From: an uncultured delta proteobacterium
GTDB lineage: Bacteria > Desulfobacterota > Desulfomonilia > Desulfomonilales > Desulfomonilaceae
Direction of reading: 5' to 3'
Assembly: GCA_963789265.1 (NCBI GenBank)
Contig: CAWBKB010000007.1
Span: forward strand, 288,001-352,000
Length of the DNA: 64,000 nucleotides
Shown here: positions 12,753 to 60,330 of the stretch, piece after piece
Numbering within the stretch: the first letter of the stretch is position 1
How the letters are laid out: every line of letters begins with the position of its first letter
The notes under the pieces: generated by a model
Databases searched by the model: none
Told to the model about the DNA's origin: nothing
Seen by the model: only the letters and a program-made list of their open reading frames with translations
Translations under genes and position numbers: made by a program

Positions 12753-12831
12753 TGGCAACGACCCGACCGGTGTCCTGGAACGAACCGAGCTTCGAAAACC
12801 AATGCGGAACAGCCTTCAGGAGGTTTGACCT

Positions 12832-14037
12832 ATGGCTACAGGCATTAGAGATAAGGTTGCGATTATTGGCATGGGATGTACCCGTTTCGGCGAACGCTGG
12901 GACGTGGGCGGCGAAGAGCTTATGGTGGAAGCGTACACCGAATGCCTTGCGGATGCGCAGCTTGACCCGGACGACATTCAGGCCGCGTGGTTCTCTACCT
13001 GTCTGGAGGAGATCGGCGTAGGAAAGAGTGCAATTCCGCTTGCCGTCACGCTTCGGCTGCCTCTCATCCCGGTGACACGCGTGGAAAACTTCTGCGCCAG
13101 CGGGACAGAAGCGCTTCGCGGCGCGGTGTACGCAGTGGCGTCGGGCGCCATCGACATCGCGCTGGCTCTGGGAGTGGAGAAACTGAAGGACACCGGGTAT
13201 GGCGGCCTACCGAACCCCGGTTCGAATGCCGGCACGTTAAATTGGTTGTGGTGGCCAAACGTGACTGCTCCGGGCACGTTCGCTCAGTTGGCGACCGCTT
13301 ACGCAGCCAAATTCAACATCCCCGAGCAGGAACTCAAGCGCGCCATGGCTCATGTGTCGGTAAAGAGCCACGCGAACGGCGCGTTGAATCCTAAAGCGCA
13401 CTTGCGCAAGCCCATCACCGAAGACCAGGTGATCAATGCGCCGATCATCGCGTATCCGCTCGGTCTCTTCGACTGCTGCGGCGTGAGCGACGGAGCGGCT
13501 TGCGCGATCGTCACGACGGTTGAGAAGGCTAAAGACCTCGGCAAGAAGGATATCGTCGCTGTAAAGGCGCTCCAAGGCGCACTTAGCTCCGGCGAAGAAG
13601 CGGGGTTCAACAGTTGGGACTGCGACCATTTCATCACCACATCCAAAGCGAGCACCAAAGCCTACGAGGAAGCCGGCATCACGGACCCGCGAAAAGAGAT
13701 CAGCATGATGGAACTCCATGACTGCTTCTCCATCACCGAACTCGTCACGTACGAGGACATGCACATCTCAGAGCGGGGCAACGCCTGGCGGGACGTGCTG
13801 GACGGTTTCTACGACCTGAGAGGCGGCGGGGTTCCGACCCAGGTGGACGGCGGCCTCAAATGCTTCGGTCATCCCATCGGCGCATCTGGGCTGCGGATGC
13901 TGTACGAAATGTACCTGCAACTCCACGGCCGCGCAGGCGAACGTCAGATCGAGGACCCGAGGTATGGCCTCACCCACAATCTGGGAGGCTTTCCATTCCA
14001 AAATGTTTGCAGTATCGCCATTGTCGGCAAGTATTAG
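12832..14037 (+). CDS. SCP2-type thiolase (acetyl-CoA acyltransferase)
   Basis: Motifs VENFCASG, ELHDCF, GHPIGASG and THNLGG. Confidence 0.93.
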   Translation: MATGIRDKVAIIGMGCTRFGERWDVGGEELMVEAYTECLADAQLDPDDIQAAWFSTCLEEIGVGKSAIPLAVTLRLPLIPVTRVENFCASGTEALRGAVYAVASGAIDIALALGVEKLKDTGYGGLPNPGSNAGTLNWLWWPNVTAPGTFAQLATAYAAKFNIPEQELKRAMAHVSVKSHANGALNPKAHLRKPITEDQVINAPIIAYPLGLFDCCGVSDGAACAIVTTVEKAKDLGKKDIVAVKALQGALSSGEEAGFNSWDCDHFITTSKASTKAYEEAGITDPRKEISMMELHDCFSITELVTYEDMHISERGNAWRDVLDGFYDLRGGGVPTQVDGGLKCFGHPIGASGLRMLYEMYLQLHGRAGERQIEDPRYGLTHNLGGFPFQNVCSIAIVGKY

Positions 14038-14094
14038 AGCGCGCGTTCGCCACGCGCCGCAAGCCGTCCGCGATGAAGTCTGAGAGGTATTTTT

Positions 14095-15237
14095 ATGGAA
14101 ATTGTACCCTATTCGGAAGAGCACAGGATTTTCAGAGAGTCAGTACGAAAGTTCTTCGAAAAAGAAGTCATACCCCACATTGACCAATGGGAAGAAGATG
14201 GAATCGTACCGCGCTCAATCTGGAAGAAAATGGGTGACAACGGGTTCCTCTGCATGGATGTGCCCGAAGAATACGGCGGTCTGGGCGCTGATTTCCTCTA
14301 TTCGGTCATCCTGATCGAGGAACTCGTGCGCACCAACCACGCCGGACTTGCCGCACCGCTGCACTCCGACATCGTGGTCCCCTACATCACCGCGTTCGCG
14401 TCTGAGGAACTCAAGCGCCGCTATCTCCCAGGGTGCGTGTCGGGCGACATTATCACGGCCGTCGGCATGACCGAACCCAACGCGGGAAGCGACTTGGCCG
14501 GCATCCGCACCACCGCGGCGGAGGACGGTGACCACGTGGTCATCAACGGCCAAAAGACTTTTATCAGCAATGGTATCCTCTGTGACCTGCTGGTACTGGC
14601 GGTCCGCGATCCCAAGGAATCCAACCCGTACCAGGCCATAGACCTGTATCTCGTGGAAGCAGAAACGCCGGGCTTCGAAAAGGGCCGGAACCTTAAGAAA
14701 ATCGGATGCCGCAGCCAGGATACTGCAGAGCTGTTCTTCAACGACTGCCGCGTTCCCAAGGCCAACCGCCTCGGACAGAAGGGGAGCGGCTTCATGATGC
14801 TAATGGACAAGTTGCAGCAAGAGCGCCTCGTTTGTGCGATCGGCGCGGTGCCCGCAATGGAACATATTCTCGATATGACCATAGCTTACTGTAAGGGACG
14901 CAACGCGTTCGGCCGCCCCATCTCCAAATTTCAGCACACCCAGTTCCAGCTTGTTGAAATGGCCACGGAAGTCAAGCTGGCACGCACCTTTGTCGATAAG
15001 CTCGTAGTCGATCATATTGAGGGGAAAAACATCGTAGTGGAAGTCTCCATGGCCAAGTACTGGACGACGGAGACCGCGTGGCGAGTCGCGGACAGATGCC
15101 TGCAACTCCACGGCGGGTACGGATACTGCGAAGAGTATCCGATCGCGCGAGCGTGGAGAGATCTACGGGTGGCGCGGATCTACGCCGGGACCAATGAGAT
15201 CATGAAGGTGATCGCGGCCAAGTTCATGGGCTTGTAG
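14095..15237 (+). CDS. Acyl-CoA dehydrogenase (long-chain type)
   Basis: Motifs GMTEPNAGSDL, NGQKTFISNG, QLHGGYGY and IYAGTNEIM. Confidence 0.95.
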   Translation: MEIVPYSEEHRIFRESVRKFFEKEVIPHIDQWEEDGIVPRSIWKKMGDNGFLCMDVPEEYGGLGADFLYSVILIEELVRTNHAGLAAPLHSDIVVPYITAFASEELKRRYLPGCVSGDIITAVGMTEPNAGSDLAGIRTTAAEDGDHVVINGQKTFISNGILCDLLVLAVRDPKESNPYQAIDLYLVEAETPGFEKGRNLKKIGCRSQDTAELFFNDCRVPKANRLGQKGSGFMMLMDKLQQERLVCAIGAVPAMEHILDMTIAYCKGRNAFGRPISKFQHTQFQLVEMATEVKLARTFVDKLVVDHIEGKNIVVEVSMAKYWTTETAWRVADRCLQLHGGYGYCEEYPIARAWRDLRVARIYAGTNEIMKVIAAKFMGL

Positions 15238-15244
15238 CGAGCCG

Positions 15245-15560
15245 GTGGATGAGTGCGGAGGAGAGCCGGCTCCGCCGTTGCCTCGCACAAGGTGCCAAAC
15301 ATCATCGAGTTTGGGGACGTGTCGCTCAACGTTGGAAGGATGGTGGATAAGAGCCTGCTCAGACAAGGGACCGTCCCGGATTGGGCACAGCAGTTCAACG
15401 CTTCATGGAACTCCGAGATTCCGAAAGTTAAACTTCTCGCGGCTGCCTCAGTGCTGTTCCTCCGCGTCCACCTTCCCCACTGAATCAATCAGAGAATTCG
15501 AGGCGGTGGCAGCCGACGGCATTGCGATTGAAGCCTACGGCATGACCGAGTCAACCGAGA
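15245..15560 (+). pseudogene. Scrambled remnants of an acyl-CoA ligase
   Basis: ASHKVPNIIEF..VGRMVDKSLLR (C-terminal motif) is followed by EAYGMTES (A5 motif) in a different frame. Confidence 0.5.
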
Positions 15561-15620
15561 TGTTCTTAGGAACCGTTCCTGTAGGGTAGGCCGTGCCCAT
15601 TGAAGCGGAACCACGATGAT

Positions 15621-15848
15621 TCAAGGGCAGATTTGACCCTTAGCACATTCCATTGCAGGCAGTTTCGGAGGAATGGGCTCCAGTCTATACAACTCCTCGA
15701 CCCTCACCGACCCCTTTTCTACAAGTTTGTCAAATAGAGCCTTTAGCTGCTGCTGTGATAGCGCATATTTCTGCATCAGTTCGTGGTCAGCCATACCGAA
15801 GCGGACGTCATCGACCAGTTCCTTTTCGTTGACCGTCCTTTTTGCCAT
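15621..15848 (-). CDS. Small hypothetical protein of a lineage-expanded helical domain family
   Basis: MAKRTVNEKELVDDVRFGMADHELMQKYALS...LFDKLV; RBS AAGGGGG; resembles a Desulfomonile repeat family from memory. Confidence 0.6.
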   Translation of the reverse strand: MAKRTVNEKELVDDVRFGMADHELMQKYALSQQQLKALFDKLVEKGSVRVEELYRLEPIPPKLPAMECAKGQICP

Positions 15849-16750
15849 AGGAACCCCCTTTTGGCAGGAGTCATGTATAGATTGTATCACAAGAGCGTGT
15901 CAGGGAAGGAGAAGATTCCTCACCCTTTTGGCGCACCAATCAAATCTCCCAAAATCACCCATACCTTTCATCCAGGCATTCCGACCAATTTTCGGTTCTG
16001 ATGGATGCCAGTTGGACACCAAGTATTGAATCGTTATCTGAAAGGGAATGCCGTGGCATGCCATGAGAGGAAAACGAGAAATGAACTTTGAACAGCGGCT
16101 GCCACTCGCGGATGGTCTGGTTTATGCGAGGTTAGGAACTCAATCTCGTCTCGATTGGTAACATAGTGAGATGCCATGAATAGCTAAATCTAACCATTTC
16201 CGTCTCATTTGATCCTCCTTTCAACGGTTCATGCCGATGTGCTTCCGAGCACGTGCCTTGGCCCCCCCCTGCGGGCTGGGGATATTCTTCGCTGCAGACG
16301 ACGCAAAGCCGTCTAATCACTTCGCTCAGGAGACCCCCAGCCTCACGATGTTACGTGTTCGAAAGCGAATTGGTATCATCATTCCGCAAAGAGGACCGAC
16401 AGCGCCACGATACTATTCGTTTGCACCCGAATCGGTACGGGGCGCCGTGAGACTATTGCCATGAGACTTGGTATCAGCCACGTGCTCGGGTGCGCAAACA
16501 GCGTACTTTGTCAGTTATAGTGAACTGGATTGAGGATAGCGCTATCCTCAATCCAGTTCACTATCAGTCGACCAAAACTCCATCGAAATTTCACAATGTT
16601 CCGAGAGGAAACCTGTCGTTCGATAGTGCTCTGTTAGCGCAAAGTTCAATGACGTGCCCCATATTTCGCGCTCGAGGGAAAGAGCAGGGGAACCAGTTTT
16701 TCACACAAAGGATTTCCGCAGACCTCATCTCCTCTCACTGACAACCCGTC

Positions 16751-18751
16751 TCACACTTCCCGGCCGAGAGCAAATCCTGCGTCAATCGCTTCGCCGATCC
16801 TGGCCGGCTGCGCCGCGTCGCCTATAACCCGGACCTCCACTCCACTGTTTTCCAAGGCTGTTGCCAGAGAATTCACAGAGCGGGACCCCATCGCGAGCAC
16901 CACGGTGTCAGCGGAGAGTGCGATGTCTTGGCCGTCGGCATTGGTGTACACCACCTCCCCTGACCGAATGTATTTCATCGTCGCGCGGGTGATCAGCTCA
17001 ATCCCTCTCATATTTAGATTCTTCATGAGAACCCATCGCGTGGAAGGGCCGACATCCTGGCCCATGCGGGGGGCCATTTCGATGACGGTCACCCTTTTCA
17101 CGCCTTTCACCATGAGACCATACAGAACGTCGGGCTTTTCCGCCTGGTGGAGCGTGAGAAAATAGAGCTGAAACGGTGAAATGGTCCCCTGGGACGCTAG
17201 GAACGCCGCGGTCTCCAACCCAACCGATCCCCCGCCGACGATGACGACGTTGCGGCCCGTTTGGGCTCTTCCTTGAAGCACGTCCCACGCCTGAACGACA
17301 TGAGGCACGTTTACCGCGTCCACGGGGGGCTTAAAGGGCGCCGCTCCTGTGGCCACCACGACAAGGTCGGGGTCCTCTTGGAAAACGAGGTCGCGCGTGA
17401 CTTCGACCCCGGTGCGAACGTCCACTCCATGTTTGGACAACATAGCTTTGTAGTACGTGAACATGTTCATGAACTCAGGCTTGTGCGTGGGGCCCGCGGC
17501 CCATCGAACCTGCCCGCCGATCTCGGGTTCCTTATCGCATAAGATCACCCGGTGGCCGCGTTGAGCCGCGGTCCAAGCGAATTCACATCCGGCCGGGCCT
17601 GCTCCCGCGACGAGGATCGTTTTGGCGCGGTCGGTTCCGGTGATTTCGGTATCCTCCTCTCTTCCTGTTGTGGGATTCACCATGCATCCGACTGGACGAA
17701 ACGTGACCACACGATCGAAACATCTCTGATTGCAAGCAACGCAACGGCGGATTTCCGCGAATCTCCCCTCCCGAGCTTTCTTCACAAATTCGGGATCGGC
17801 GAGCAGTCCCCTGGCCACGCCAACGAGGTCTGCGATCCCTTCCCGGAGAACTCTCTCTGCGACAAACGGGTCGTTGATCCTGTTGCATGCTATCACCGGG
17901 ATAGCCACGTTTTCCTTAATTCCGCCCGCGAGGTACGCATAGCCCGCCTGCGGCACATCCATTGTTATCTGAGGCACCCGGCTTTCGTGCCACCCTCCCG
18001 TCACGTTAATGCAATCAGCACCTGCGTCCTGGCACACTTTAGCGAAGACGCGGGCCTCTTCGTTCGTGTGGCTCTCAGGGACAAAGTCATTCCCCGCGAC
18101 CCGCACGAGAAGGGCCATGCCGGGACCCACTTCTTTCCGGACCTTCTCCACAACCTCGCGGCCGAACCTCATACGATTTTCCAGCGGGCCTCCATACTCG
18201 TCACCCCGCTTGTTGGTCTTCGGCGAGAGGAATTGCGAAATTAGGTACCCGGCTGCAAGGACCTCCACCGCATCGAACCCGGCTTGTCTCGCACGTGTCC
18301 CGGCTCGCACAAAGTCGTCCTGGACACGCTCGATATCCGCCAGTGTCATGGCGGTGGTCTTGTGCCTGGAAAGAGCGCTGACGTATTCGGATGGAGCCAG
18401 CACCGGAATGCCCTTCGTGCCGCAGAATGAGTACGCGCCCGCCATGTAGAGTTGAACCGCAACTTTGCCTCCTTCTTCATGGATGGCCTGGGTAAGACGG
18501 TTCAATCCCGGGATGAATTTGTCGTCTTTGATTGAGAGGAAAGAATCAATGCCTGAAGCTTCGTCATCAATCTCCACACCCCCCACAATGATCAATCCGA
18601 CTCCTCCGCGGGCCCGGGCCCGGTAGAAACCAATGATCTTGTCGGTGACCTCCCCGTTAGGGGTGTAGTTCAGATGCATCCCGGTCATGACGACTCTGTT
18701 GGCAAGGGGCATCGGACCTAAGGATATGGGGTCAAAGAGTTTGGTAATCAC
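16751..18751 (-). CDS. fadH: 2,4-dienoyl-CoA reductase-like NADH:flavin oxidoreductase (OYE domain, 4Fe-4S, FAD domain)
   Basis: GYLISQFLSPKTNKRGDEYGG, CVACNQRC..CMVNP, GAGPAG and GGGSVG; GTG start at 18751. Confidence 0.85.
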   Translation of the reverse strand: MITKLFDPISLGPMPLANRVVMTGMHLNYTPNGEVTDKIIGFYRARARGGVGLIIVGGVEIDDEASGIDSFLSIKDDKFIPGLNRLTQAIHEEGGKVAVQLYMAGAYSFCGTKGIPVLAPSEYVSALSRHKTTAMTLADIERVQDDFVRAGTRARQAGFDAVEVLAAGYLISQFLSPKTNKRGDEYGGPLENRMRFGREVVEKVRKEVGPGMALLVRVAGNDFVPESHTNEEARVFAKVCQDAGADCINVTGGWHESRVPQITMDVPQAGYAYLAGGIKENVAIPVIACNRINDPFVAERVLREGIADLVGVARGLLADPEFVKKAREGRFAEIRRCVACNQRCFDRVVTFRPVGCMVNPTTGREEDTEITGTDRAKTILVAGAGPAGCEFAWTAAQRGHRVILCDKEPEIGGQVRWAAGPTHKPEFMNMFTYYKAMLSKHGVDVRTGVEVTRDLVFQEDPDLVVVATGAAPFKPPVDAVNVPHVVQAWDVLQGRAQTGRNVVIVGGGSVGLETAAFLASQGTISPFQLYFLTLHQAEKPDVLYGLMVKGVKRVTVIEMAPRMGQDVGPSTRWVLMKNLNMRGIELITRATMKYIRSGEVVYTNADGQDIALSADTVVLAMGSRSVNSLATALENSGVEVRVIGDAAQPARIGEAIDAGFALGREV

Positions 18752-19175
18752 ATGAGCCTCATATTCATCTATGATCGGATCCTCCGCGGGGTCGAGACTG
18801 GAGCAGGAACCCCATAAACTCAAAGCGAGTGTCTTCCCGCTGTGCGTGGGTGATGAGAGGATCACGGTCCTGCCTCAGGCCCTCACCGGTCCATACCTCC
18901 GGTAACAGGCATGACTGCGCCGGTGAGGAATCGTGCGGCATCCGAAGCCAGGAAGGTGACTAGGGCGGCGACTTGCTCCACGCGGCCTGGGAGCCTGTCG
19001 CGCAGCGGCAGGCCCATGCTGCGCAGCGCTTAACCTAGCTTCACTTTGAGGAGGCATCGCAACTAGCCTCGCTGCGAATTCGCGTCGTTGCACCGTGCCG
19101 GAATGCGCGATGACCGCAGGATAGTGCAATGAGTGGCCCGATTCCCTATGCTTTTGGGGGTTGCGCGACCGGCTC

Positions 19176-20339
19176 TTAGAAGACTTGTGGGACTCCGTCT
19201 TCCAAGAGCTTCCGAGCGAGAAGCATTCTCTGAATCTCCGACGTTCCTTCGCCAATCCTCGAAGCCCTGGCCCTTCTGTAAATTCCTTCGATAGGACATT
19301 CCCTCATGTACCCCATACCTCCGTGGATCTGCAGGGCCTTGTCCGCTGCCCTGCAAAGCATCTCGGACGAAAACAATTTGACCATCCCCGATTCCCGGAT
19401 AATGTCCATGCTCTGATCGGCTTTCCATGCGGCGTGGTGCAGCATCAATCTGGCGGCATGGATCTCGACGGACATGTCTACAAGCATCCATTGGATGGCC
19501 TGATTTCGTGCAATCGGTTTCCCGAACTGGACCCGCTGCTTGGAATAATCAATGGCCAGCTGCAAGCACCTGTCTGCCATACCAATGAAAAAAGCGGCCA
19601 ATCGCAAGCGTCCTTCTCCAACTCGCTTGAGCGCCAGAAGAAACCCCTGTCCCACTGGACCGAGAACGTTGGTCTCCGGAACCCGGCAATCTTCAAAGAC
19701 CAACTCGCCGAGCCTGTCGTCTCCGCCCATGTGTTGGTGCACCCGGCCCAGAGAGAAGCCGGGGGTACCCTTGTCAACGAGAAAGCAAGTGATCCCTCTG
19801 TTAGCCTTGTCCGTCACTGCAAAGACGATGGCAAAATCTGCATACGGCGCGTTGGAAATGAAATGTTTTCGTCCATTGATGACATAATCGGAGCCCTCTC
19901 TGACAGCTCTGGTTTCTATAGACGCGGCGTCTGAACCGGCATTTGGCTCGGTCAGGGCAAAACACGACAATTTATCGGCTCTGATGGCCGGAAGGAGGTA
20001 CTTGTCCCGTTGTTCGTCGTTGCATTCCAGAAGAATGTGCGACATGGCCCCTGATTCTCCTAATATCGAGTCCGCGAGTTCCACGCCGGATCGACCAATC
20101 TCTTCTCTCAAGAGAGACATCCCCAGGTTGCTCAGACCTCCGCCGCCGAATTCTTCCGGAAAATCCCCAGCGTAAAAACCCACTTCTCTTGACCGGCGTC
20201 GTACGTGTCTTCGAACTTCTTCAGGGATAAACCCTTCAGCAGTCCGGTAGGATTCTTCCAGAGGCTTTACTTCCTTTGCTATGAACTTCTGGAGACTGGC
20301 GGTCAATGCTCTCAATTCATAGGGTATGGTGAAGTCCAT
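19176..20339 (-). CDS. Acyl-CoA dehydrogenase
   Basis: Motifs FALTEPNAGSDA, QIHGGMGY and IGEGTSEIQR. Confidence 0.95.
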   Translation of the reverse strand: MDFTIPYELRALTASLQKFIAKEVKPLEESYRTAEGFIPEEVRRHVRRRSREVGFYAGDFPEEFGGGGLSNLGMSLLREEIGRSGVELADSILGESGAMSHILLECNDEQRDKYLLPAIRADKLSCFALTEPNAGSDAASIETRAVREGSDYVINGRKHFISNAPYADFAIVFAVTDKANRGITCFLVDKGTPGFSLGRVHQHMGGDDRLGELVFEDCRVPETNVLGPVGQGFLLALKRVGEGRLRLAAFFIGMADRCLQLAIDYSKQRVQFGKPIARNQAIQWMLVDMSVEIHAARLMLHHAAWKADQSMDIIRESGMVKLFSSEMLCRAADKALQIHGGMGYMRECPIEGIYRRARASRIGEGTSEIQRMLLARKLLEDGVPQVF

Positions 20340-20454
20340 CGCGCACTTCCTTTCCGTGACCGCCTTGGCCTTATTGTCTGGATTAGCAACCGGCACCGTG
20401 GAGTGGTTACACGCTGCAGCCAGCACACCGATCGCGAATTGTCGTCAAAGCTTC

Positions 20455-21321
20455 TTACTCGCGAAACACCGCCGCTCTGGCTTCGCTGGTATTTGCTATG
20501 TCGCGGCCGGTTTCTCTCACGATTTTCACCAACGCGTCCACGAGTTGACCGTTATTGACGGCCTTGTTGCCATCAGGCAGGTAGAAGGTGTCTTCCAGTC
20601 CGGTCCGCAAGTTTCCTCCCAACTCCGAAGTCCTTCTGTGAAGATCCCACACCTCCTCTCGGCCAACAGCAATGGTTTGCCAATGTGTTCCAGGCTTCAT
20701 TTCCTCAATCAACAGAGGCAGCCACGACGGTTTCGCCGGCATTCCGCTGGGGACCCCCATGACGAGAGATATGTGAACAGGAGGAGTGAGCAGTCCGTTT
20801 TCTTGAAACAGCCCGACGCTCCTAACGATGCCGCCATCGAAGCACTCACACTCCGGAACGATGGAGTTCTTCTTCATTGCGTCGAGAAAACTCTGTATCT
20901 TTTCAACGGGATTGTCGAAGAGCAGCGGCGGCCAGGCCCATTCCCCATTCCTTCTTGTTTTTAGGTAGTTGAGCGATCCGCTGTTCAGTGCGGCCGTCTC
21001 GGGCTTTGCGCTGTCAAGGCAGGCAAGGGGGCCACTTATGTCACTCCCCACTGTTCCTGTCGAACAATTGACAATGATTTCCGGAACGCGCTGACGTATT
21101 GCTGAAACGATCTCTTTTGCCACAGTTGCATCCCATGTTGGCAGGTGGCCGAAGCCGGGCCTTTGATCCCTGAAGTGACAATGAACGATAGTAGCCCCCG
21201 CGTTGAATGCCTGTTCCGCTGCGAGCGCCATTTCTTCAGGAGTGACGGGCACCGCGTGCTGCTGGGGATTTGTGAGCACTCCTGTCAGCGCACAGGTGAT
21301 AATCGCCTTGTCTTGATTCAT
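20455..21321 (-). CDS. Beta-keto acid cleavage enzyme (BKACE/Kce, DUF849)
   Basis: Motifs IITCALTG, VHCHFRD, PECECFD and GGNLRTGLED. Confidence 0.92.
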   Translation of the reverse strand: MNQDKAIITCALTGVLTNPQQHAVPVTPEEMALAAEQAFNAGATIVHCHFRDQRPGFGHLPTWDATVAKEIVSAIRQRVPEIIVNCSTGTVGSDISGPLACLDSAKPETAALNSGSLNYLKTRRNGEWAWPPLLFDNPVEKIQSFLDAMKKNSIVPECECFDGGIVRSVGLFQENGLLTPPVHISLVMGVPSGMPAKPSWLPLLIEEMKPGTHWQTIAVGREEVWDLHRRTSELGGNLRTGLEDTFYLPDGNKAVNNGQLVDALVKIVRETGRDIANTSEARAAVFRE

Positions 21322-21406
21322 GCTACCTCCACGAGTCTGTAGTATCTGCAGATAACCGCGAGACCGACCGCTCTCGCGTTTCCGATAATCACGCAGCCAG
21401 TTGCAT

Positions 21407-22184
21407 TCATCTGCCTTTCCATATTGGTTGCCTCTTTTCCAAAAACGCTTTCATCCCCTCTACGGCATCTTCGGTACCAGCCACCTCAATGAACATGTGG
21501 CTCAGATAGTCGAGTGCTCCTTCGAAATCCTTTTCCAATGAAGCGTAATAGGCTTGTCGCCCGATACGGATCGCTGCGGGACTCTTGGAACAAAGCATGG
21601 CCAAGACATGGTCTACCTCATCGTCCAACACGTCTGCCTCGACGACCTTCGTCACCATACCTAGTTCCTTCGCCTCTCTCGCCGTAATCTTTTCTCCTGA
21701 ATAGGCAAGGTACCAAGCTTGTTTCCTTGGAACGTGCCTGAAAAGGAGCGCACCGACCAGCATGGGCCATATACCGACATTTATTTCCGGTGCTGAGAAA
21801 CTTCACACTATTTTTCGCGATTACAATGTCACAAGAGAGCATCAGCCCGAGCCCTCCAGCCATACAATCTCCAGCGACCCTGGCCACGAGGGGTTTCCCT
21901 ATTTTCCCCATTTTTGCCAGGAGCTGGGCGTAAGCTGCAACCCCCTGCAGTTTACCCTCATCCTTTGCCCCGGACATCATGCCCAGATCTGCGCCGGCAC
22001 AGAAGACTCTGTCTCCCGCGCCGGTGATGCATAGTGCGCGCGCGTTGTCATCGTTGTCTGCGTCATCGAGGTAATCAGACAAGGCATGCACGATGTCGAG
22101 GCTGAGAGCATTCCTCTTTTCCGGGCGATCGATCGTTATGTACCCGACATGATTCCTGACCTCATACAATAACTCGTCACTCAA
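21407..22184 (-). CDS. Enoyl-CoA hydratase/isomerase, with a +1 frameshift near 21799 (probably a sequencing error)
   Basis: FCAGADL and MAGGLGLMLSCD; removing one T restores VKFSAPEINVG and joins the ORF ending AFLEKRQPIWKGR. Confidence 0.88.
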
Positions 22185-22235
22185 TGCCGTCCCTCCTTGG
22201 TTTGGGTTTCGTTGCTTGTGGAGAATTCTATGCGT

Positions 22236-23798
22236 CTAAACCTTTCTGTCTCTTCCCTGCCAGTAATTCTCCCGCAGATCCTTCTTCAGCGCCTTGCCGC
22301 TCAGTGTGCGGGGAATCGCATCAAGTACCACTACCTTCTTGGGCTTCTTGTATCCGGCAATCCTGTCGCCTACGAACGCGATGATTTCCTGATCGGTTGC
22401 GCTCCAGCCGTTCTTGAAGACAATGAAGGCACATACCGCTTCACCCCAGACGTCATCAGGAATGCCGATTACGGCACAATCCGAGATAGCTGGGTGTTCG
22501 GAAAGAACCTTCTCGATCTCGAACGGATAGATATTGAATCCCCCGCTAATGATCATGTCCTTCTTTCGATCCTTGATGAAGATATAACCTTCATCATCGA
22601 CAGTGCATAAATCGCCGGTGTAAAACCTGCCACCTCTTAACGCCTCGTTTGTCTCCTCAGGCATGTTCCAGTAGCCCTTCATGACCATTGGACTCTTCAC
22701 GGTCAACTCTCCGATTTCACCTGGCTTAACTTCATCTCCGTTTTGGTCCAAGACCTTGACATCGACTCCCAAGGCCGGTTTACCGCATGACGCAAGCCGC
22801 TTGACTCTCTTGGGAGACCCGTCGAGAATATGGTCCTCAATATAGAGATGCGTGAGCAGGCCTGCCTCCGAAGCGCCGTAATCTTGCAAGAAAATAGGCC
22901 CGAAGTGCTCTATTCCAGCTTTTAACAATTCCGGAGGCATGGGCGCCCCGCCGTAGGTAAGACACTTCAGGCTACTGAGGTCGTATTTTCCAAAATCCGG
23001 AGAGTTGAGTAAGAAGTTCAAAATCACCGGCACAATGTGGCAGTCGGTTATCATGTGCTCTTCAATTAACTTCATCATCCCTGCCGCATTGAATTTTTCC
23101 ATAAGGACGGTAATGGCGCCTATCCACTGATATATTAAGTCGAATGCCATCCCAGCGAATGAATACAGAGGAAGGAAATGCAACGCTCGCGAGCCTGATG
23201 CCAACATACCCGTGTGCGGCTGATTTTTGGTGAAGGTCTCAATTATTGCGCCGGCCGTACCCTGAGTCTGTATGGCCCCTTTCGGAGGCCCCGTAGTTCC
23301 GCTGGTGTACTGAAGCCAAAGCTCATCATCTTCGGCCAATGCCACTGTTCGATCATGCTTAGGATACTTCGTTAGCACGGCTTCCAGGTGAGTGAAGCCC
23401 TCCACTCCCGCATCGATACTGAAGAAGTGGCGCACCGATGCCAAATGTTCCCTGATTTCACTGATCGCGGAGGCAAAAGCCTCGGAAATGACTAAAATAG
23501 CCGCTCCGGAATCGTTGAGGATACGCAAAATCTCTCGCGGTTTCAGCCTGCCATTCACAGGAACGAGGACAAATCCGCCTTTTCCGCAAGCCCAGAAGAT
23601 TTCTCTGTAGTAATGGCAGTTGCGACTGAGGAGTGCGATCCGATCGCCTTTGGTCAAGCCGCGGTCATGCAGCGCGGCAACGATTGAATTGGAAGCTTCG
23701 TCGATTTCCCCAAAGGTAAATCGGTCGTCACGGCAAATGAGTGCAATTTTGTCTGCGAATCTGTCAACTACCTGCAAGATCTGGTCTCTGTAAAGCAT
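22236..23798 (-). CDS. Acyl-CoA synthetase (AMP-forming)
   Basis: Motifs YTSGTTGPPKG, YGASE, TGDL, DRKKDMIISGG and SGKALK. Confidence 0.95.
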   Translation of the reverse strand: MLYRDQILQVVDRFADKIALICRDDRFTFGEIDEASNSIVAALHDRGLTKGDRIALLSRNCHYYREIFWACGKGGFVLVPVNGRLKPREILRILNDSGAAILVISEAFASAISEIREHLASVRHFFSIDAGVEGFTHLEAVLTKYPKHDRTVALAEDDELWLQYTSGTTGPPKGAIQTQGTAGAIIETFTKNQPHTGMLASGSRALHFLPLYSFAGMAFDLIYQWIGAITVLMEKFNAAGMMKLIEEHMITDCHIVPVILNFLLNSPDFGKYDLSSLKCLTYGGAPMPPELLKAGIEHFGPIFLQDYGASEAGLLTHLYIEDHILDGSPKRVKRLASCGKPALGVDVKVLDQNGDEVKPGEIGELTVKSPMVMKGYWNMPEETNEALRGGRFYTGDLCTVDDEGYIFIKDRKKDMIISGGFNIYPFEIEKVLSEHPAISDCAVIGIPDDVWGEAVCAFIVFKNGWSATDQEIIAFVGDRIAGYKKPKKVVVLDAIPRTLSGKALKKDLRENYWQGRDRKV

Positions 23799-25436: not shown

Positions 25437-27031
25437 GTAACCATTCACTTACGCGCGGCACGGGCAAGGCAGACCAATTCATTGGGTCCTGAAGCTCCCG
25501 TGAATAATCATTGAAGCTGCGCCTTGAGAGGGTCGAATCAAGGGGGATTGGATCGGGAAAACAAGACCGCAGAGGGATCTGCTTTCGGATTGCGGGCCAG
25601 GAGGTCGAGAGCTTCCCTGATTCGGCCCGCCACGTCTGCGCCTCTTTTATGGATGGTAGCCGCGACGGTGGCCAAGGTGCTTCTCACCTTGGCTCTCGCA
25701 TCGGTGACCGAGCCAAAGCTGACCTTCCGGGCAATCACCGATGGCCTCAGGTCTCTTTCGGCCAAGTTATTGTCCGCTGGTACCGCACGATGGTCCACCC
25801 AATGAAAGAGACGATGCTCATTTTCCCGGAATATGTCCTGGATGCGGCGAATCCCCTGGTGCCGTGCGGGCTGTGCCATAGTGGTCTTGATCTCGTCACG
25901 CAGTGCAGCCGCCCGGCGATAGAACTCATCATCAGAAATCGGTTGTGTACCAAGTCTCATGGCCAATGACAATTGGGGAGCCGCGACGGCTACAAAGGTC
26001 GATACTTCTTTGTTATCTGGGAACTCCTTCTCCAAATCTTCCACTTTCCGCAACAGATGAGCAAAACAGTACCTGAATCCGGCACGGCGCTTTGTTGTAG
26101 CCCGCATAGCGGTCGACAACGAGAGTCCCCGGGATGAAATGCTTGCCGAAGATTGCTTGGGGAACCTTGGACGAGCGGTTCTTTCCGAACCGAAAAATGC
26201 TTAGATCCGGAGTCGCAAATAGCCACACGTACCCATTCTTCCCGTCAGTCCGCCAACCCGTCTTGTCTGCATGCTTTACCGGAGCCTGTCGATACTCCTC
26301 GATCAGTCTGTCGGTTACCCCTTCAAAGAGATCGGCGCTCTTCCGAAAGAGTTTCGCAAGGCTGCCGGGCCCAATGTCCAGATACTCACAGACCCTCCCC
26401 ATTGGCATACCGTGGAGGTAGTGCATTTCCACCGCATCTGCGATGAATTGGTTACCGTAAAGGCTCTTAGGAAGCACTCCGGGGAGCTGAGGAGTGACAT
26501 TGCGACGGCAATGAGGACAATACCGTTTGGCTACCCGAAACGTGATCTTTTCCGCCTTGTGCCGAGGAGTATCTATCACGCTGCGCTCCGCCCACCCCTT
26601 CTTCTCCAAAGGAGCCCCGCACTCCAGACACAGCTCGCTGTCGGTATCCACATCCACCGTACGGTCGGCGCTGCCATTGTCATGGCTCTTGCGACCAACC
26701 CCTTTGTGACCCCCCGGCCTGGCACCTTTGGGCTTGCGCTCCTTCGCCTCCGTGCTAGGTTTGATCGGCCGCTTGGACGACGGGGTGGACGATCCGAAGA
26801 AGCCGTCTTGCTCTCTCCGCGCGTGATAGCGTAGCTTGGCCCGAAGCTGCTCGATCTCCTCTTTCAGCTCATCAATAAGACGCTGCTTCTGAAGGCAAAA
26901 TGCGCAGCCGTTGACCGCCATGGCGCACATCCTCGATCAATAATTGGCGCCATCTCTATACAACCTTCCCGATCCGAACGCGAGAAAAATCCCTCCCGCT
27001 ATCCTTCTCCCCCACAAGAGTGAATCCTTAC
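25437..27031 (-). mobile_element. IS66 family element, single-ORF (ISBst12-like) type
   Basis: TIRs GTAACCATTCAC and GTAAGGATTCAC; contains only a TnpC-type transposase; no 8-bp TSD visible. Confidence 0.85.
25538..26930 (-). pseudogene. tnpC: IS66 transposase, frameshifted near 26072
   Basis: SSTPSS, GHKG, Zn ribbon, HADKTGW (usually DETG), VVDRYAGY, CFAHLLR and NNLAERDLRPSVIARKVSFG. Confidence 0.88.
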
Positions 27032-30446: not shown

Positions 30447-31061
30447 TTAGTTGCCATCCGGAACACCCCCGTTGCCCCAGACCCGACAGTTTCCGCCATT
30501 GCCCCAAACCCTACAGATTCCCCCGTTGCCCCAGACTCGACAAGTGGTGTTGCCCCAGCCTGCTCCCCTATTGGCCCAAGCCCCACCGGCATTGCCCCAC
30601 CCACCACCGGTGTTGCCCCAAGCACGACCGGAATTCGTCCACGCTCGCCCGGAGTTGCTCCATGCGTGGTGATGCTCTCTATGTCTTTCGTGCTCGTGAT
30701 GTTCTTTCTTCGTCTCGTGTTTCTTCCCAGGTTTGTGGTCCTTCTTGTGCTCTTTTTTATGTTCGTGTCCCTTCTTTTGTTCCGCTTTGTGCTGCTTCTT
30801 CGGGTGACCGCCTTTATGCTCGCCGCCTTTCTTGGCCAGGAATTGGGGTGCATCCGCTCCGGTCCCAAGTTCTTGACCTGTCGTTCCGGACCGACTGCCG
30901 AGATCTTCGGGGTTTCGAAGGGCTCCCAAAACCTCGAGCGGTCCCACCGAGACTGCACCGATTACCACGCAGGACCATTTCCCCAAGGCCCTCAGAAACT
31001 CCCGCCTGTGCAGGCTGGACTCATAATCTTCGTCCCTCGGCCGGTCCAATTGATCGCTCAT
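30447..31061 (-). CDS. Putative RiPP precursor with Tat-like leader, His/Lys-rich spacer and nine W-x-N repeats
   Basis: HRREFLRALGKWS plus hydrophobic stretch; KKxH repeats; WSN, WTN, WGN, WGN, WAN, WGN, WGN, WGN, WGN; RBS GGGGGA before ATG 31061. Confidence 0.85.
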   Translation of the reverse strand: MSDQLDRPRDEDYESSLHRREFLRALGKWSCVVIGAVSVGPLEVLGALRNPEDLGSRSGTTGQELGTGADAPQFLAKKGGEHKGGHPKKQHKAEQKKGHEHKKEHKKDHKPGKKHETKKEHHEHERHREHHHAWSNSGRAWTNSGRAWGNTGGGWGNAGGAWANRGAGWGNTTCRVWGNGGICRVWGNGGNCRVWGNGGVPDGN

Positions 31062-31297
31062 GTTATCCCCCAAAAACGAAGTCACGAGTATCACCCGAAA
31101 TAACCGATACTCACTCATCTTTAAAATCGCGGTCCATCACAGTTGAAGTTGGCATGAATCGAATTTGGAATGCAAGAAAAAAGGATATTCACCAACGAAA
31201 ATTCCAAGAATTTTTAACAACGTGAATTTGGTTTCGTCCAAACGAATAACCGGGCTGGTTGAAATAATATACCAAAATTACGGAGGGAGGACCGGAT

Positions 31298-32356
31298 ATG
31301 AAAGGGCTACCAGCCTATTTTCTTATCATAGCAACAGTTCTTGCTGTTTGTGGCGGAGCCACATGGGCGGCCGGCAAACGAGGGGGCGGAGGACATCATG
31401 CCGGTGGCCGAAAAGCTGTTCGTCATGCCATGCGCCATATACAGAAGCCTAAAGCGGTACTCCGGCAACATCCCCACCGCCGCGCCCTTCGCGTTGCACA
31501 GCATCGGAAAGAAATGGCGCATCACCCTCGCGTTAAGCCTCGAATTGCAAGAGAAGTTCACATGCACCCGAAGGGGATTAACCAGGGCGGACCCGTCCGC
31601 GGATTGCACAGTCCTCACAACACCGTGAAGCCTACCAAACCGGCGAGACTGGCTAGCGTGGCTAAGAATGTTCGAACCCAGTTCACCGCACGCCACAGAC
31701 ACGTATTCACTCCACGTTGGTGGCAAAATCGCTCTATCACCAACGTAACCAATGTCAGGTGGTTTTCTCATTGGTGGGCACATCCCGGTCCTTATTACTG
31801 GTGGAGACGATGCAGTTGGGTCGCGCTAACGGGATGGTTGCCGGGCGTGGTCTGGTCGGCACCGACCATCTACGATTACGGAAGCAACATCTATTATCAA
31901 GATGATGGTGTGTATATTAACAGCATATGGCAGTATTCAGCGGATCAGTACTATCAGCAGGCCCGGACCATCGCTTTGAATGTACCGCAAGGCGTCTCGG
32001 AGAAATCGGAATGGATGCCACTGGGAGTCTTCGCCGTGCAGCGTCCGAATGCGGACTCTCCCCACGCGATGCTGCAACTCGCGATAAGTAAAGAAGGTGC
32101 AATTGCCGGAACCTTTTACAATTTGGCCACCGAAAAGATCCGACCGGTTCATGGGTCGGTGGACAAGCAGACCCAACGAGTTGCGTGGACTATGGGCAAT
32201 GGTAATGGTGGAAGGATGATTATGGAGACAGGGGTGAACAATCTTACACAGAACCAAACGCAGGTGCTGGTGCATCTTGGACCGAACAATACTAAGAAAT
32301 GGTTTCTGGTGCGGATGGAAGCACCCAACTCCAGTTCTGTCGCAAGCAAACGATGA
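31298..32356 (+). CDS. Secreted protein with basic His/Arg-rich N-terminus, Trp-rich middle and conserved C-terminal beta domain
   Basis: Signal peptide; YDYGSNIYY; EWMPLGVFA..LQLAISKEGAIAGTFYN..GSVDKQTQRVAW..METGVNNLT; RBS GGAGG. Confidence 0.8.
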   Translation: MKGLPAYFLIIATVLAVCGGATWAAGKRGGGGHHAGGRKAVRHAMRHIQKPKAVLRQHPHRRALRVAQHRKEMAHHPRVKPRIAREVHMHPKGINQGGPVRGLHSPHNTVKPTKPARLASVAKNVRTQFTARHRHVFTPRWWQNRSITNVTNVRWFSHWWAHPGPYYWWRRCSWVALTGWLPGVVWSAPTIYDYGSNIYYQDDGVYINSIWQYSADQYYQQARTIALNVPQGVSEKSEWMPLGVFAVQRPNADSPHAMLQLAISKEGAIAGTFYNLATEKIRPVHGSVDKQTQRVAWTMGNGNGGRMIMETGVNNLTQNQTQVLVHLGPNNTKKWFLVRMEAPNSSSVASKR

Positions 32357-45685: not shown

Positions 45686-46489
45686 ATGTCGGCTATAGAG
45701 TTGCCCCATAACTCTCCTCTCATGTTCGAGGAAATAGAACCAGGTCTCGGCTTGGTCACCATGAACCGGCCTGAGAGACTCAACGCGCTCAACATAGCGA
45801 TGGTGGAGAGCTTCGAAGCCCTTTCCAGAGACCTCGCCGGTAATGATGACATTCGAGTTCTCATACTCATCGGTTCAGGGCGGGGGTTTTGCGCGGGAGC
45901 GGACCTGGTTGAAGTGGCCGCTCGTTCAGGTGATGAGGAATTTGCATCAGGGGACAAGTTTCTGCGCTTGGTGCAGCAAAGGTTTTCCAATCTCGTCCTA
46001 GCTTTCCGGCAGATTCCTCAGCCGGTAATTGCGGCGGTGAACGGACCATCTGCCGGCGGCGGATTCGCACTGGCCCTGGCGTCTGACATCCGCATAGCCG
46101 CCCCCGAAGCATATTTTTTGGCGTCCTTCATCAATATCGGCCTTTCGGGCGGAGAGATGGGAACCTCATATCTTCTGCCCCGCCTCATAGGCTTGTCTCG
46201 CGCATCGGAGATCCTCTATTCGGGCAGGCGTGTCGGGGCTGCTGAAGCGGAACGAATCGGCTTGGTGACCAAGATTGTACCGCTTGAGGACCTCCGTGCC
46301 GAGGCCATAGCTGTGGCACGAACGATGATGGATAAGAGCCCCAGCGGGCTGATGCTCACCAAGCGGGTCTTGAATGACAACGCTGCCGCTTGTTCGCTTG
46401 CCGCGGCCATGGAACTGGAAAACCGGAACCAAACCATAATGGTGTTTTCCAACGAATTCTTTAAACGAGTGAACGCATTTGTGAAGTAA
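45686..46489 (+). CDS. Enoyl-CoA hydratase/isomerase
   Basis: FCAGADL and AAVNGPSAGGGFALALASDIR. Confidence 0.93.
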   Translation: MSAIELPHNSPLMFEEIEPGLGLVTMNRPERLNALNIAMVESFEALSRDLAGNDDIRVLILIGSGRGFCAGADLVEVAARSGDEEFASGDKFLRLVQQRFSNLVLAFRQIPQPVIAAVNGPSAGGGFALALASDIRIAAPEAYFLASFINIGLSGGEMGTSYLLPRLIGLSRASEILYSGRRVGAAEAERIGLVTKIVPLEDLRAEAIAVARTMMDKSPSGLMLTKRVLNDNAAACSLAAAMELENRNQTIMVFSNEFFKRVNAFVK

Positions 46490-46597
46490 GAAACGTTTCA
46501 CAACCCGATGCATCGGCAAATCCGGTCCTTTAGGAGCTTTGGCCGTAGAGCTTGAACGTGGGTCCGCGAAAAACCTAAACAGTAGGAGGAAATAGCG

Positions 46598-47425
46598 GTG
46601 GAAAAGATGCTGGATGGAAAGGTGGCCATCATCACGGGTTCAGGAAGGGGCATCGGGAGCGCTGCAGCGCTCATGTTCGCCAGGGAAGGGGCGAAGGTCG
46701 TTGTCAGCGACCTCGATGCAGAGCCTGCTGAACAGATCGCGGCTGACATCAAGAGTGCCGGAGGTGACGCGATCACTTTTGTCGGCGACGTAACCGACCC
46801 TGGTTTCGGCGACGGCATCGTCAGAGCAGCGGTTGACTCATGGGGCGGGCTCCACATCATAGTAAACAACGCGGGGTTCACCTGGGATGCGCTCATCCAC
46901 AAGATGGACGACGAGCAGTGGGACAAGATCATTGACCTCCACCTGAAAGCGCCGTTCCGACTTATTCGAGCCGCCAAACCGTACTTCTGCGATGCAGCTA
47001 AACAAGAAGCAGGGGAAGGCAAGAAAGTAGCACGCAAGATAATCAACGTGTCTTCCGTTGCCGGAGTCAGCGGCAACGCCGGCCAAGCGAACTATTCCTC
47101 GGCGAAGGCCGGCATCATGGGATTAACCAAGGCAATGAGCAAAGAATGGGCGCGATATAACGTCCAGGCCAATTGTGTGGCCTTCGGATTCATTGATACG
47201 CGTCTCACCCAGGAAAAGGAAAAGGGGATTTCTGTTGAGGCAGGCGGCCAACAGATTGCCGTCGGTGTGCCCAAGTCTCAGCGAGACATCTTCATCAAAA
47301 TGATCCCCATGGGTCGGCCGGGCACGCCTGATGAAGCAGCAGGAGCAATCATGTTCTTCGCCTCCCCAATGTCGGATTACGTTTCCGGGCAAGTGCTGGT
47401 GGTGGGTGGCGGCTTCTCGATGTAA
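46598..47425 (+). CDS. SDR oxidoreductase (FabG-like)
   Basis: TGSGRGIG, NNAG and YSSAK; GTG start with RBS AGGAGG. Confidence 0.93.
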   Translation: MEKMLDGKVAIITGSGRGIGSAAALMFAREGAKVVVSDLDAEPAEQIAADIKSAGGDAITFVGDVTDPGFGDGIVRAAVDSWGGLHIIVNNAGFTWDALIHKMDDEQWDKIIDLHLKAPFRLIRAAKPYFCDAAKQEAGEGKKVARKIINVSSVAGVSGNAGQANYSSAKAGIMGLTKAMSKEWARYNVQANCVAFGFIDTRLTQEKEKGISVEAGGQQIAVGVPKSQRDIFIKMIPMGRPGTPDEAAGAIMFFASPMSDYVSGQVLVVGGGFSM

Positions 47426-47460
47426 TGGCACCACACGATGAGCCATGAAAGGAGTACGAA

Positions 47461-48298
47461 GTGGCGCTCGATCTTAATGTGATGGGCATAAAATCAGATC
47501 CCATCGCGTTCACCTACACCGAAGACGATGTGATCCTTTATGCCCTTGGCGTCGGATCTGGAGCCGAAGAACTCGACTTTGTTTACGAAAAGAATCTCAA
47601 GGTACTGCCAACTTTCGCGGTGATACCCTTGATGCCCATTATTTTCCAATTCGTAGAAGCGGCCAACGTTAATCTAAAAGGCTTATTGCACGGTGACCAC
47701 AAGATCGTGCTGCACAAGAAAATTCCCAGAAACGGAACTATGTATAGCAACTGGCAGTGGACGTCAGTGTATGACAAGGGTGACCGAGGTGCTTTGTTCT
47801 CGCTTCACTCTGAAACTAGAAACGAGAAGAGTGAACTAATCTTCGAAAACTTTCTCACCGGTTGGGACCGCACGGCGGGTAATTTCGGTGGAGAGCCAGG
47901 GCCCAAGAACGAAAAACGAGTGCCTCCCTCCGGAGTAAAATCGGATTTCCGAGTCGAATACCGGACTTCACCCAGTCAAGCGGCTCTCTACCGACTAAGC
48001 GGTGACAAGAACCCTCTGCATATCGATCCGGAGTTTGCCAGGAAGAGCGGTTCTGGAAGAACCGATCCTCATGGGATTGTGCACGTACGGCTTTGCCGGC
48101 CGGGCCGTATTGCACAGCGTGTGCGGAAGCGACCCGGCACGGTTCAGATCGTTATCTGCGCGGTTCACCGCTATGGTCCTGCCGGGAAACACCTTGATCA
48201 CCGAGGGATGGAAGGCGGAAGGCGGGACATACATCATTCAGTCCAAGACACAAGACGGACGCATCGTCCTAGACAACGCCACGGCCGAAGTAGCGTGA
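47461..48298 (+). CDS. MaoC double-hotdog dehydratase, with a +1 frameshift near 48051
   Basis: DVILYALGVG and YRLSGDKNPLHIDP; continues in another frame as EPILMGLCTYG. Confidence 0.88.
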
Positions 48299-48313
48299 GG
48301 GAGGTGAGTTAGA

Positions 48314-49460
48314 GTGAACCGGGTAATCAACACGGAAGAACATCGCATTTTTCGCGATGCCATTAGGAAGTTCGTGAGAAAGGAGGTTGTTCCCCATCTG
48401 GACGAATGGGAAGAACAGGGGATTGTGCCTCGCGGAGCATGGAAACAAATGGGGGAACAGGGGTTTCTTATGTCCGTGGATGGACGAGGAGTACGGCGGG
48501 GCCGAGGCAGGATTCGAATATTCGATCATGGTGTACGAAGAGCTGATCAGGGCCGGCGCGATGGGCTTCATGGTCGCGCTCCATTCGGACATTGTCGTGC
48601 CGTACGTGTATTCCTTCGGCAGTGAAGAGCAGAAGCGGAAATGGCTCCCCGGCGTGGTGACGGGCGAAGCGCTCATGGCCATAGCTATGACCGAGCCCGA
48701 CACTGGGTCGGATCTGCAGGCCATCCGCACGAGAGCGGTCAAGGATGGAGATTCCTGGGTCATCAACGGGCAAAAGACGTTCATTTCCCTGGGAATTTCC
48801 TGCGACCTTGTGATCGTAGTCTGCAGAACCGATCCTCTGGCTCAGCCCCCGCATCGGGGCATCAGTCTCATCGTAGTCGAAGATGGCACGCCCGGTTTCG
48901 AGAAAGGCCGCAAACTCTCTAAGATGGGGCTCCGTATGTCCGACACGGCTGAGCTCTCGTTCAACGATTGCCGGGTCCCCGTGGACAATCTGCTGGGTGA
49001 GGAAAACCAAGGATTCCTTTACCTGATGCAAAAGCTCCAGCAGGAACGCTTGGTTTGCTCGTTCATGGGGCAGGTTGCGGCGGAATCGATGCTGGATATG
49101 ACCGCCAAGTATTGCAAAGAACGGGAGGCATTCGGTCAACGCATCGGAAGTCTTCAGCACAATACATTCAAACTGGCTGAAATGGCCACCGAAGTGGAAC
49201 TGGGTCGAACCTTTCTCGACGACCTTCTCGCCGACCATATTGAAGGCAAGGACATCGTCAAAAGGGTGTCTATGGCCAAATGGTGGTTGACCGAGATGGC
49301 AAACCGGGTGGCGTATCAGTGTGTCCAGCTCCACGGCGGTTATGGCTTTATGGAAGAATATCCCATTTGTCGCTGGTATCGCGACATTAGAGCCTCCTGC
49401 ATCTTCGCAGGCACTTCAGAAATCATGAAAACGATCATCGGCAAGATGATGGGGTTCTAG
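48314..49460 (+). CDS. Acyl-CoA dehydrogenase, with a +1 frameshift near 48465
   Basis: EEHRIFRDAIRKF then AMTEPDTGSDL and QLHGGYG; paralog of 14095-15237. Confidence 0.92.
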
Positions 49461-49483
49461 TCGGAAAATGCAGGCAACGAAGA

Positions 49484-49813
49484 ATGAACATGGAGCACGT
49501 CCATGAAATCAACCAGGAAGTCCGCTCCATCGCCGGGGGATATATTTGGGAGCGAGAGGGGATACTTGAGTTAGACGGGCGGGAAGCACTTTACGTGGTG
49601 GGCAACGCCTTTGTGGATTCTTCCTGTTGCGGAATCGGTGGATGTCGCTTCGCCTACGTTCCTGGTTACGTTCGAGGACTTCGCATCCGGAGAAATGAGC
49701 AGGGTTTGTGGGTGTCAGAAGTGGAGCCGATCCATGACGATCAAACTAGGGATCGAATTAGGCGCCTGCTGGAAGACAGGGAGATAATCCAACAAGTTCA
49801 GTTCGGAGAGTGA
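49484..49813 (+). CDS. Small hypothetical protein with a DSSCCGxGGC motif
   Basis: Operonic position; conserved-looking Cys motif. Confidence 0.7.
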   Translation: MNMEHVHEINQEVRSIAGGYIWEREGILELDGREALYVVGNAFVDSSCCGIGGCRFAYVPGYVRGLRIRRNEQGLWVSEVEPIHDDQTRDRIRRLLEDREIIQQVQFGE

Positions 49814-49867
49814 ATTGCCCCAGGCCAATCAAAAATGACTTGGGAAGCTATAAAAGGAGGAATGAAG

Positions 49868-51315: not shown

Positions 51316-51362
51316 GTATGCAGGTCGAAGGAGCACCCTTCCCTTGCAAGGAGGATAAAGAC

Positions 51363-60325: not shown

Positions 60326-60330
60326 TTCTC

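Follow-up and report, generated by a model that had tools for sequence, protein, structure and literature searches.

A 47-residue N-terminus on a repeat-containing peptide precursor appears, on balance, to work twice: it would be bound through a K-W-S motif by MID, a degenerate radical-SAM paralogue encoded beside it, and it would route the product to the Tat system, with removal by signal peptidase I. The precursor, MID, and a radical SAM/SPASM maturase are encoded together in the window, the 64,000-nucleotide stretch of DNA from an uncultured member of the Desulfomonilaceae that we analyzed. The first-pass annotation of this DNA had read the N-terminus as a twin-arginine signal serving as both RiPP leader and export route, with a product that might stay in the membrane. 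The Tat-type signal, its arginine pair, the lack of a dedicated exporter or peptidase, and the leader role all hold in the analysis below; the membrane anchor does not. That annotation also overlooked the likely reader of the leader, which structural prediction suggests is the catalytically degenerate, 280-residue MID.

The precursor gene and its surroundings

Translation of positions 31061 to 30945 on the minus strand gives the first 39 residues of the 204-residue precursor ORF, whose parts are listed in Table 1. An ATG farther upstream, at 31118, was considered as the start and rejected, as no GGGGGA-like site lies 5' of it. Promoter and terminator scans of the locus gave no signal above shuffle level. 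Behind the leader come a 25-residue spacer, a 58-residue Lys/His-rich segment, and nine W-x-N units. The Lys/His-rich insertion was not seen in the other precursors inspected, and its composition (15 His in 58 residues) makes metal binding possible. Cleavage of the precursor would leave the spacer and the Lys/His-rich segment on the product, and the mature product expected from such a cut is a low-complexity polypeptide of 157 residues. The protein collection also includes a frameshifted version of the same precursor (P0154), which probably stems from an assembly of lower accuracy.

Table 1. Features of the precursor cassette, in window coordinates
Feature	Position	Strand	Remarks
Precursor gene, 204 residues	30447..31061	-	Tat-type leader, spacer, Lys/His-rich segment, nine W-x-N repeats
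Shine-Dalgarno-like GGGGGA	31066..31071	-	4 nt 5' of ATG 31061
Twin-arginine motif S-L-H-R-R-E-F-L	30993..31016	-	residues 16-23; RR is residues 19-20, at 31002-31007
L-G-K-W-S motif	30972..30986	-	family-specific; predicted docking site for MID
h-region	30936..30977	-	14 uncharged residues, W29-L42
c-region	30921..30935	-	putative signal peptidase I site after G46 or A47, suggested by the sequence and by AxA at the same place in homologues
Spacer	30840..30920	-	P-Q-F end, like the (E/P)-Q-aromatic motif of the long-type subfamily
Lys/His-rich segment	30663..30836	-	58 residues with 17 Lys and 15 His
Core	30450..30662	-	six W-x-N units (7-residue spacing), then three C-R-V-W-G-N units
MID, 280 residues	29565..30407	-	degenerate radical-SAM/SPASM paralogue without CxxxCxxC; four invariant C-terminal Cys
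Radical SAM/SPASM maturase, 373 residues	28440..29561	-	CxxxCxxC and SPASM Cys conserved

On the other side of the precursor lies a divergent 352-residue ORF (31298-32356, plus strand) that begins like a signal peptide and contains a His/Arg-rich region; it matched nothing in Pfam, NCBIfam, or PADLOC. An IS66 transposase split across two overlapping ORFs (25538-26930, minus strand) lies 1.5 kb downstream of the cassette. Two large acyl-CoA degradation clusters, unrelated to the cassette (7867-23798 and 45686-61455), contain thiolases, MaoC/SCP2 fusions, ChsH2-like proteins, and 2-hydroxyacyl-CoA dehydratase subunits.

The twin-arginine motif is conserved

The leader had been matched to the Tat consensus S/T-R-R-x-F-L. 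The motif is there, with the qualification that His, not Ser or Thr, precedes the arginine pair; H-R-R-E-F-L agrees with the RR-x-F-L form of the consensus given in PMC6708511. The hydrophobic stretch reported behind it is also present and reaches farther than annotated, from W29 to A47 (ending at 30921). Its 14 uncharged residues have a mean hydropathy of 1.8, compared with the at least 13 uncharged, moderately hydrophobic residues looked for in an h-region; an uncharged run of at least 13 residues directly follows the Lys in 62 of 89 homologous leaders.

A lack of conservation of the arginine pair among homologues had been named beforehand as one refuting outcome. We gathered 90 unique leaders, 89 of them complete, with a profile that excludes the RR region. 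Of the 89, 84 have the pair where the consensus places it, two have it shifted by three residues, two have KR in its stead, and one has SS. Phe stands at +2 after RR in 92% of leaders, R20 is conserved in 96%, and all six Arg codons are used at both positions. The same picture emerged from an independent set of 67 homologous ORFs chosen solely by three or more W-x-N units and an intact N-terminus (six cut or short ORFs were set aside), 65 of which contain RR-x-[FLM]. By regular expression, Tat-like N-termini occur in 35 ORFs of the 6.06-Mb genome to which the window belongs, some of them spurious. The RR motif of the window leader is not a chance occurrence.

General Tat models recognize this family poorly. 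The window leader had no match to TIGR01409 or to the other NCBIfam and Pfam Tat models, and among 44 homologous leaders (of 83 with a Met) TIGR01409 found two above its cut-off and nine more below it. A TatFind-like rule passes the window leader, yet just 47 of 84 leaders.

In one lineage (L074:5491-5961, P0140) point changes have turned the pair into SS or PS, and L-G-K-W-S is retained together with the W-x-N core. A quick MID tree groups this lineage as sister to a locus that has RR, so the loss looks derived; the tatC match of its genome is cut by a contig end. Judged from its sequence, this lineage indicates that RR is not needed everywhere and that K-W-S is kept apart from RR, and it provides a natural experiment on whether recognition can be separated from export.

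A predicted reader of the leader

K-W-S lies outside the Tat consensus. [KR]WS is present in all 67 ORFs of the set selected by W-x-N, and in the window's own genome only 2 of the 35 Tat-like N-termini contain KWS, both of them precursors of this family. The candidate partner for this motif, MID, had no Pfam or PDB-sequence match, and its one NCBIfam match was faint (YhhB, E 0.046). Profile comparison matched it to the active radical SAM enzyme with 87% probability over 175 columns, and its Atlas matches fell in unnamed clusters, one set of which has SPASM in 17% of members. The single-chain model is partly of low confidence (pLDDT 71), and Foldseek gave weak matches to TIM-barrel and radical-SAM structures (best E 2.5e-4).

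The predicted complex of MID and leader scored 0.69, versus 0.00 for the best control, and that mark is reached by 116 of 157 solved pairs versus 2 of 215 mismatched ones. The prediction was unstable: three runs gave 0.01, 0.69, and 0.77, with contact agreement of at least 7% and partner pLDDT of at least 35. The tightest predicted contacts place W29, S30, V32, and V33 on MID residues 134-152, a patch that overlaps residues 135-151, the most conserved 17-residue window of MID. R19, F22, and L23 are also among the predicted contacts, and R20 is absent from the confident ones. The earlier proposal that this segment acts as a RiPP leader is thus backed by the conserved motif and the predicted complex, and we consider it fairly probable, on the strength of the models, that MID binds the leader through K-W-S. 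The pairing of leader and MID also occurs with Cys-rich and His-rich cores and divergent radical SAMs, in loci that were found through MID, so that the link is biased towards MID.

Two other readings of the leader have to be weighed here. According to one, it is a plain Tat signal, what the maturases recognize is either the spacer or the W-x-N core, and the conservation of KWS has a different cause, for instance the tuning of export. The signal of bufferins is dispensable for modification on overexpression (PMC11626156), long-type precursors carry an (E/P)-Q-aromatic motif before the core that could fill this role, and one of our three runs failed. KWS is nevertheless invariant across phyla, absent from the other 33 Tat-like N-termini of the genome, and retained in the lineage without RR, and short-type precursors offer no spacer to recognize; we regard this reading as unlikely. 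The second makes the segment a maturase-binding leader alone, with RR-x-F-L in an amphipathic docking helix and a product that is either retained in the cytoplasm or exported by a transporter encoded elsewhere. The poor TIGR01409 scores, the predicted contacts of R19, F22, and L23, and the existence of the RR-less lineage would fit, as would the reliance of darobactin-type systems on host proteases (PMC9055067). A cytoplasmic leader, however, needs neither an AxA fixed before the core, nor a Gly/Ala-rich hydrophobic stretch, nor a co-encoded exported SnoaL-like protein, and R20 is 96% conserved though outside the confident MID contacts. These points make it improbable that binding is the sole role of the leader.

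Probable cleavage and export of the product

Signal peptidase sites follow the -3/-1 rule. The first-pass annotation saw no clear AxA site in the window precursor; a strict AxA is indeed missing, but the rule accommodates both V-L-G|A and L-G-A|L, which have Pro41 upstream. The family helps in reading the site. Its 75 precursors with a W-x-N core divide into 55 of a short type, which have no spacer between leader and core, and 20 of a long type, to which the window precursor belongs with its spacer and relaxed site. In 42 of the 55 short-type members a strict AxA stands 0-4 residues before the first core Trp, versus a mean of 21.6 (SD 3.4, maximum 32) in 1,000 shuffles; signal peptidase I would therefore release their core directly. 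Long-type members mostly have A-x-G-like sites, and their (E/P)-Q-aromatic motif, a second conserved one, lies directly 5' of the core.

The suggestion that the product stays anchored in the membrane fares poorly against these sites. In such a case the precursor would be exported by Tat, remain uncleaved in the inner membrane, and display its ringed repeats to the periplasm. The lack of a strict AxA in the window, the A-x-G-like sites of most long-type members, and a mean hydropathy of 1.85 over the best 19-residue stretch (S30-L48) speak for it. The uncharged run is just 14 residues long and is interrupted by E43, Pro41 with either relaxed site is compatible with cleavage, and short-type homologues have AxA at the corresponding place. 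We think anchoring quite unlikely and, from the same sites, cleavage of the signal peptide likely.

The absence of a dedicated transporter and peptidase, pointed out in the first-pass annotation, extends to the family. No C39 or ABC family occurs among the 47 window ORFs that were scanned or among 133 same-strand flanking ORFs scanned with Pfam (of 161 in total, the other 28 being from L102-L136). Transport and peptidase genes among the 133 are sporadic: one M3 peptidase, two RND pairs, and two MFS proteins. A C39 peptidase was not found in the window's own genome (95.6% complete), and the single hydrolase near the cassette is a divergent Ntn-hydrolase that does not recur among the neighbor clusters of other loci. 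The own genome has TatC, four TatA-family matches, and two signal peptidase I matches, and TatC is present in 48 of the 49 genomes reached via 50 of the 66 genome loci described below; since 11 of 14 control genomes have TatC as well, finding it carries little weight. Up to 100-120 unstructured residues are reportedly tolerated by Tat (PMC6708511), a range that the 157-residue low-complexity product would exceed unless compacted by ring formation. On these sequence data we consider export of the product by Tat quite likely.

The maturase and the putative W-x-N cross-link

The NCBIfam models that best match the maturase are anSME (121 bits), DynA (114), TIGR04083 (113), and DarE (99), all far below cut-off. 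The nine W-x-N units of the core fit the aromatic-X2-X3 motif by which triceptides and their three-residue cyclophanes are defined (PMC11499958). By analogy, these units are probably cross-linked, likely as three-residue cyclophanes joining the Trp ring to the C-beta of Asn; alternatively, the link could be a darobactin-like ether or run from W to R.

Distribution and variants of the family

The protein collection holds 20 close relatives of MID, the window's own included. By MID alignment we assembled 66 genome and 32 metagenome loci, to which 18 regions from relatives and the own genome were added and from which 18 duplicates were removed, leaving 98. A precursor is present in 84 of these, a radical SAM in 90, and a SnoaL-like gene in 61; of the 14 loci that lack a precursor, most appear to be short or to run off a contig. 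Genes are typically arranged as SnoaL-like gene, precursor, MID, radical SAM, and the precursor-MID-radical SAM part of this order is the usual one across phyla. Named records include the Desulfomonilaceae (closest), Geobacteraceae, Verrucomicrobiota, Acidobacteriota, Planctomycetota, Chromatiaceae, and Vulcanimicrobiota. MID and a radical SAM also occur on a contig of 1.6 kb whose title names an archaeal MAG (L062), which may reflect mis-binning. The SnoaL-like gene 5' of the precursor encodes a signal-like N-terminus (e.g., L120:1312-1818), of RR type in 30 of the 61 and Sec- or lipoprotein-like in appearance in the remainder.

A leader profile searched against 1.84 billion representatives gave 308 matches at the 50%-identity level. 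The best 150 of these 308 are all short proteins (median 107 residues, maximum 342), and 84 of them have at least two W-x-N; among those of the best 150 with other cores, 23 of 54 show signs of frameshifted reading. Canonical RR is present in 141 of 146 among the best of the 308 matches, the profile itself including RR. An Atlas search with the leader scored under 0.9 and serves as a lead only.

Other cores accompany the same leader. At L037:4551-13877, nine tandem precursors have His-rich cores free of W-x-N, adjoining a 1,199-residue protein in which a HemN-like radical SAM, MID, and a methyltransferase are fused. Cys-rich cores (with R-C-G-G-W, C-R-C-R, and G-R-G-C) occur at L033:5009-5353, L038:2438-3330, and L050:3994-4401; the radical SAMs of L033 and L038 are 21-24% identical to that of the window. 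TIGR04117, a model of Cys-x-x-x repeat radical SAM targets with a cut-off of 50, had no match in the own genome, and it weakly matched the leaders of L050 (19.4 bits, at the N-terminus of the model) and L022.

The same genome carries a second cassette (L021, G000:C1:531500-535900) with a SnoaL-like gene, a C-R-V-W-G-N precursor, an extra radical SAM, MID, and a 691-residue protein. Its leader has S-R-R-S-F-L, its 691-residue protein has two radical-SAM domains, and its layout recurs in close relatives. The window copy could be a divergent second cassette, poorly exported or decaying, with the C1 locus as the working system. Unlike C1, the window lacks the SnoaL gene, the first radical SAM, and the C-terminal second radical-SAM domain; it also has the IS66 remnants downstream and the long Lys/His insertion. 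Its three ORFs are nonetheless intact and closely spaced, catalytic and SPASM Cys are retained, the gene order is the usual one across phyla, and in a quick tree its MID branches basally within its clade, on a branch of ordinary length. That the window cassette is decaying or poorly exported seems to us very improbable.

Comparison with known systems

Housekeeping-signal RiPPs and W-x-N cores are each already known separately. Like bufferins (BufA/BufB/BufC; PMC11626156) and DAG-RiPPs (PMC13056109), the window family has a housekeeping signal on the precursor, probably signal peptidase as the protease, and no dedicated transporter. Those systems, however, use Sec or, in DAG-RiPPs, lipoprotein signals together with MNIO enzymes, whereas this family has an RR signal, an extra invariant motif, and a radical SAM/SPASM enzyme; the MNIO enzyme and Sec signal of bufferins are both absent from the window cassette.

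The HXS anti-phage system (HxsA/B/C/D) is similar in that HxsA is a signal-bearing repeat protein with cationic repeats, matured by cytoplasmic radical SAMs and sent to the periplasm (PMC13128918). It differs in its His-x-Ser repeats, a peptidoglycan-binding domain, two cluster-bearing radical SAMs, and HxsD, and the account available there does not assign a Tat route; the window's repeats are W-x-N, and its radical SAM scored 32 bits on HxsB against a cut-off of 370. An anti-phage role was also considered and rejected: PADLOC had no match to the window precursor or MID and gave just generic radical-SAM similarity to viperins.

Among radical-SAM RiPPs, the GrrA/OscA1 triceptides (with GrrM/OscB) share a Gly-rich core with repeated aromatic-x-Asn units; the window differs in an enzyme nearer to DynA, anSME, and DarE, a degenerate radical-SAM partner, and an RR leader. 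Both scores fall below cut-off, for the precursor (TIGR04260, 18.5 versus 31 bits) and for the enzyme (TIGR04261, 64.5 versus 310). Dynobactin and darobactin maturases give the best-scoring RiPP maturase models for the window enzyme and would share Trp-centered cross-link chemistry with it. Here too the scores are below cut-off (DynA NF041298, 114/450; DarE NF038005, 99/650; DarW NF041300, 96/650 bits), with no ABC neighbor; darobactin differs in having one short core and usually a DarBCD ABC transporter (PMC9055067).

The predicted part played by MID recalls TorD and DmsD, redox enzyme maturation proteins that bind a specific Tat signal in the cytoplasm during maturation of the passenger (PMC3316669, PMC8428690). 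Unlike them, MID is a degenerate radical-SAM/SPASM TIM-barrel protein, and its passenger is a repeat peptide in place of a cofactor enzyme. In the portions available of a review of RiPP leader proteases (PMC10885120), Tat and signal peptidase do not occur, and the family motifs were not found in the accessible supplements of the radical-SAM atlases PMC10288494 and PMC9062424. We found no Tat-exported RiPP in the literature searched; subscription radical-SAM RiPP atlases may list these genes. A radical-SAM RiPP family with a conserved Tat-type leader is apparently undescribed so far.

Proposed mechanism and significance

We propose the following sequence of events for a cytoplasmic leader reader coupled to Tat. 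The precursor is synthesized with a leader in which RR-x-F-L, L-G-K-W-S, the hydrophobic stretch, and the cleavage site can be read directly from its sequence. MID would hold this leader in the cytoplasm, as a substitute for an RRE domain, and would delay export as redox-enzyme maturation chaperones do. The active radical SAM, presented with the core by MID, would cross-link each W-x-N unit, by analogy with the triceptides. Macrocyclic peptides are expected to be poor Sec substrates according to the bufferin paper (PMC11626156), and the ring-stiffened product may likewise be one and be released to TatABC. A cut by signal peptidase I after G46 or A47 would then yield a cationic multi-ring polypeptide in the periplasm, where most family members would also send the SnoaL-like partner. 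Our guess is that the product binds a polyanion in the envelope or, in the His-rich window copy, metal.

More broadly, these loci may represent a RiPP class that spans several phyla and is organized around a portable Tat-leader module. In such a class, K-W-S would be read by a dead radical-SAM paralogue, which would act as RRE substitute and export-proofreading chaperone and would pass W-x-N, Cys-rich, or His-rich cores to interchangeable radical SAMs, the resulting multi-ring polypeptides going to Tat and signal peptidase I. We put this forward tentatively, as a plausible proposal that falls somewhat short of even odds. The leader profile in any case provides a handle for mining such loci, and the system may offer a means of secreting poly-macrocyclic peptides to the periplasm. 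Published housekeeping-signal RiPPs take the Sec or lipoprotein route, and a Tat-routed radical-SAM RiPP, if true, closes that gap. It would show how cells can link oxygen-sensitive cross-linking in the cytoplasm to export when neither a transporter nor a protease is dedicated to the task, and it would assign a role to a radical-SAM paralogue that is catalytically dead.
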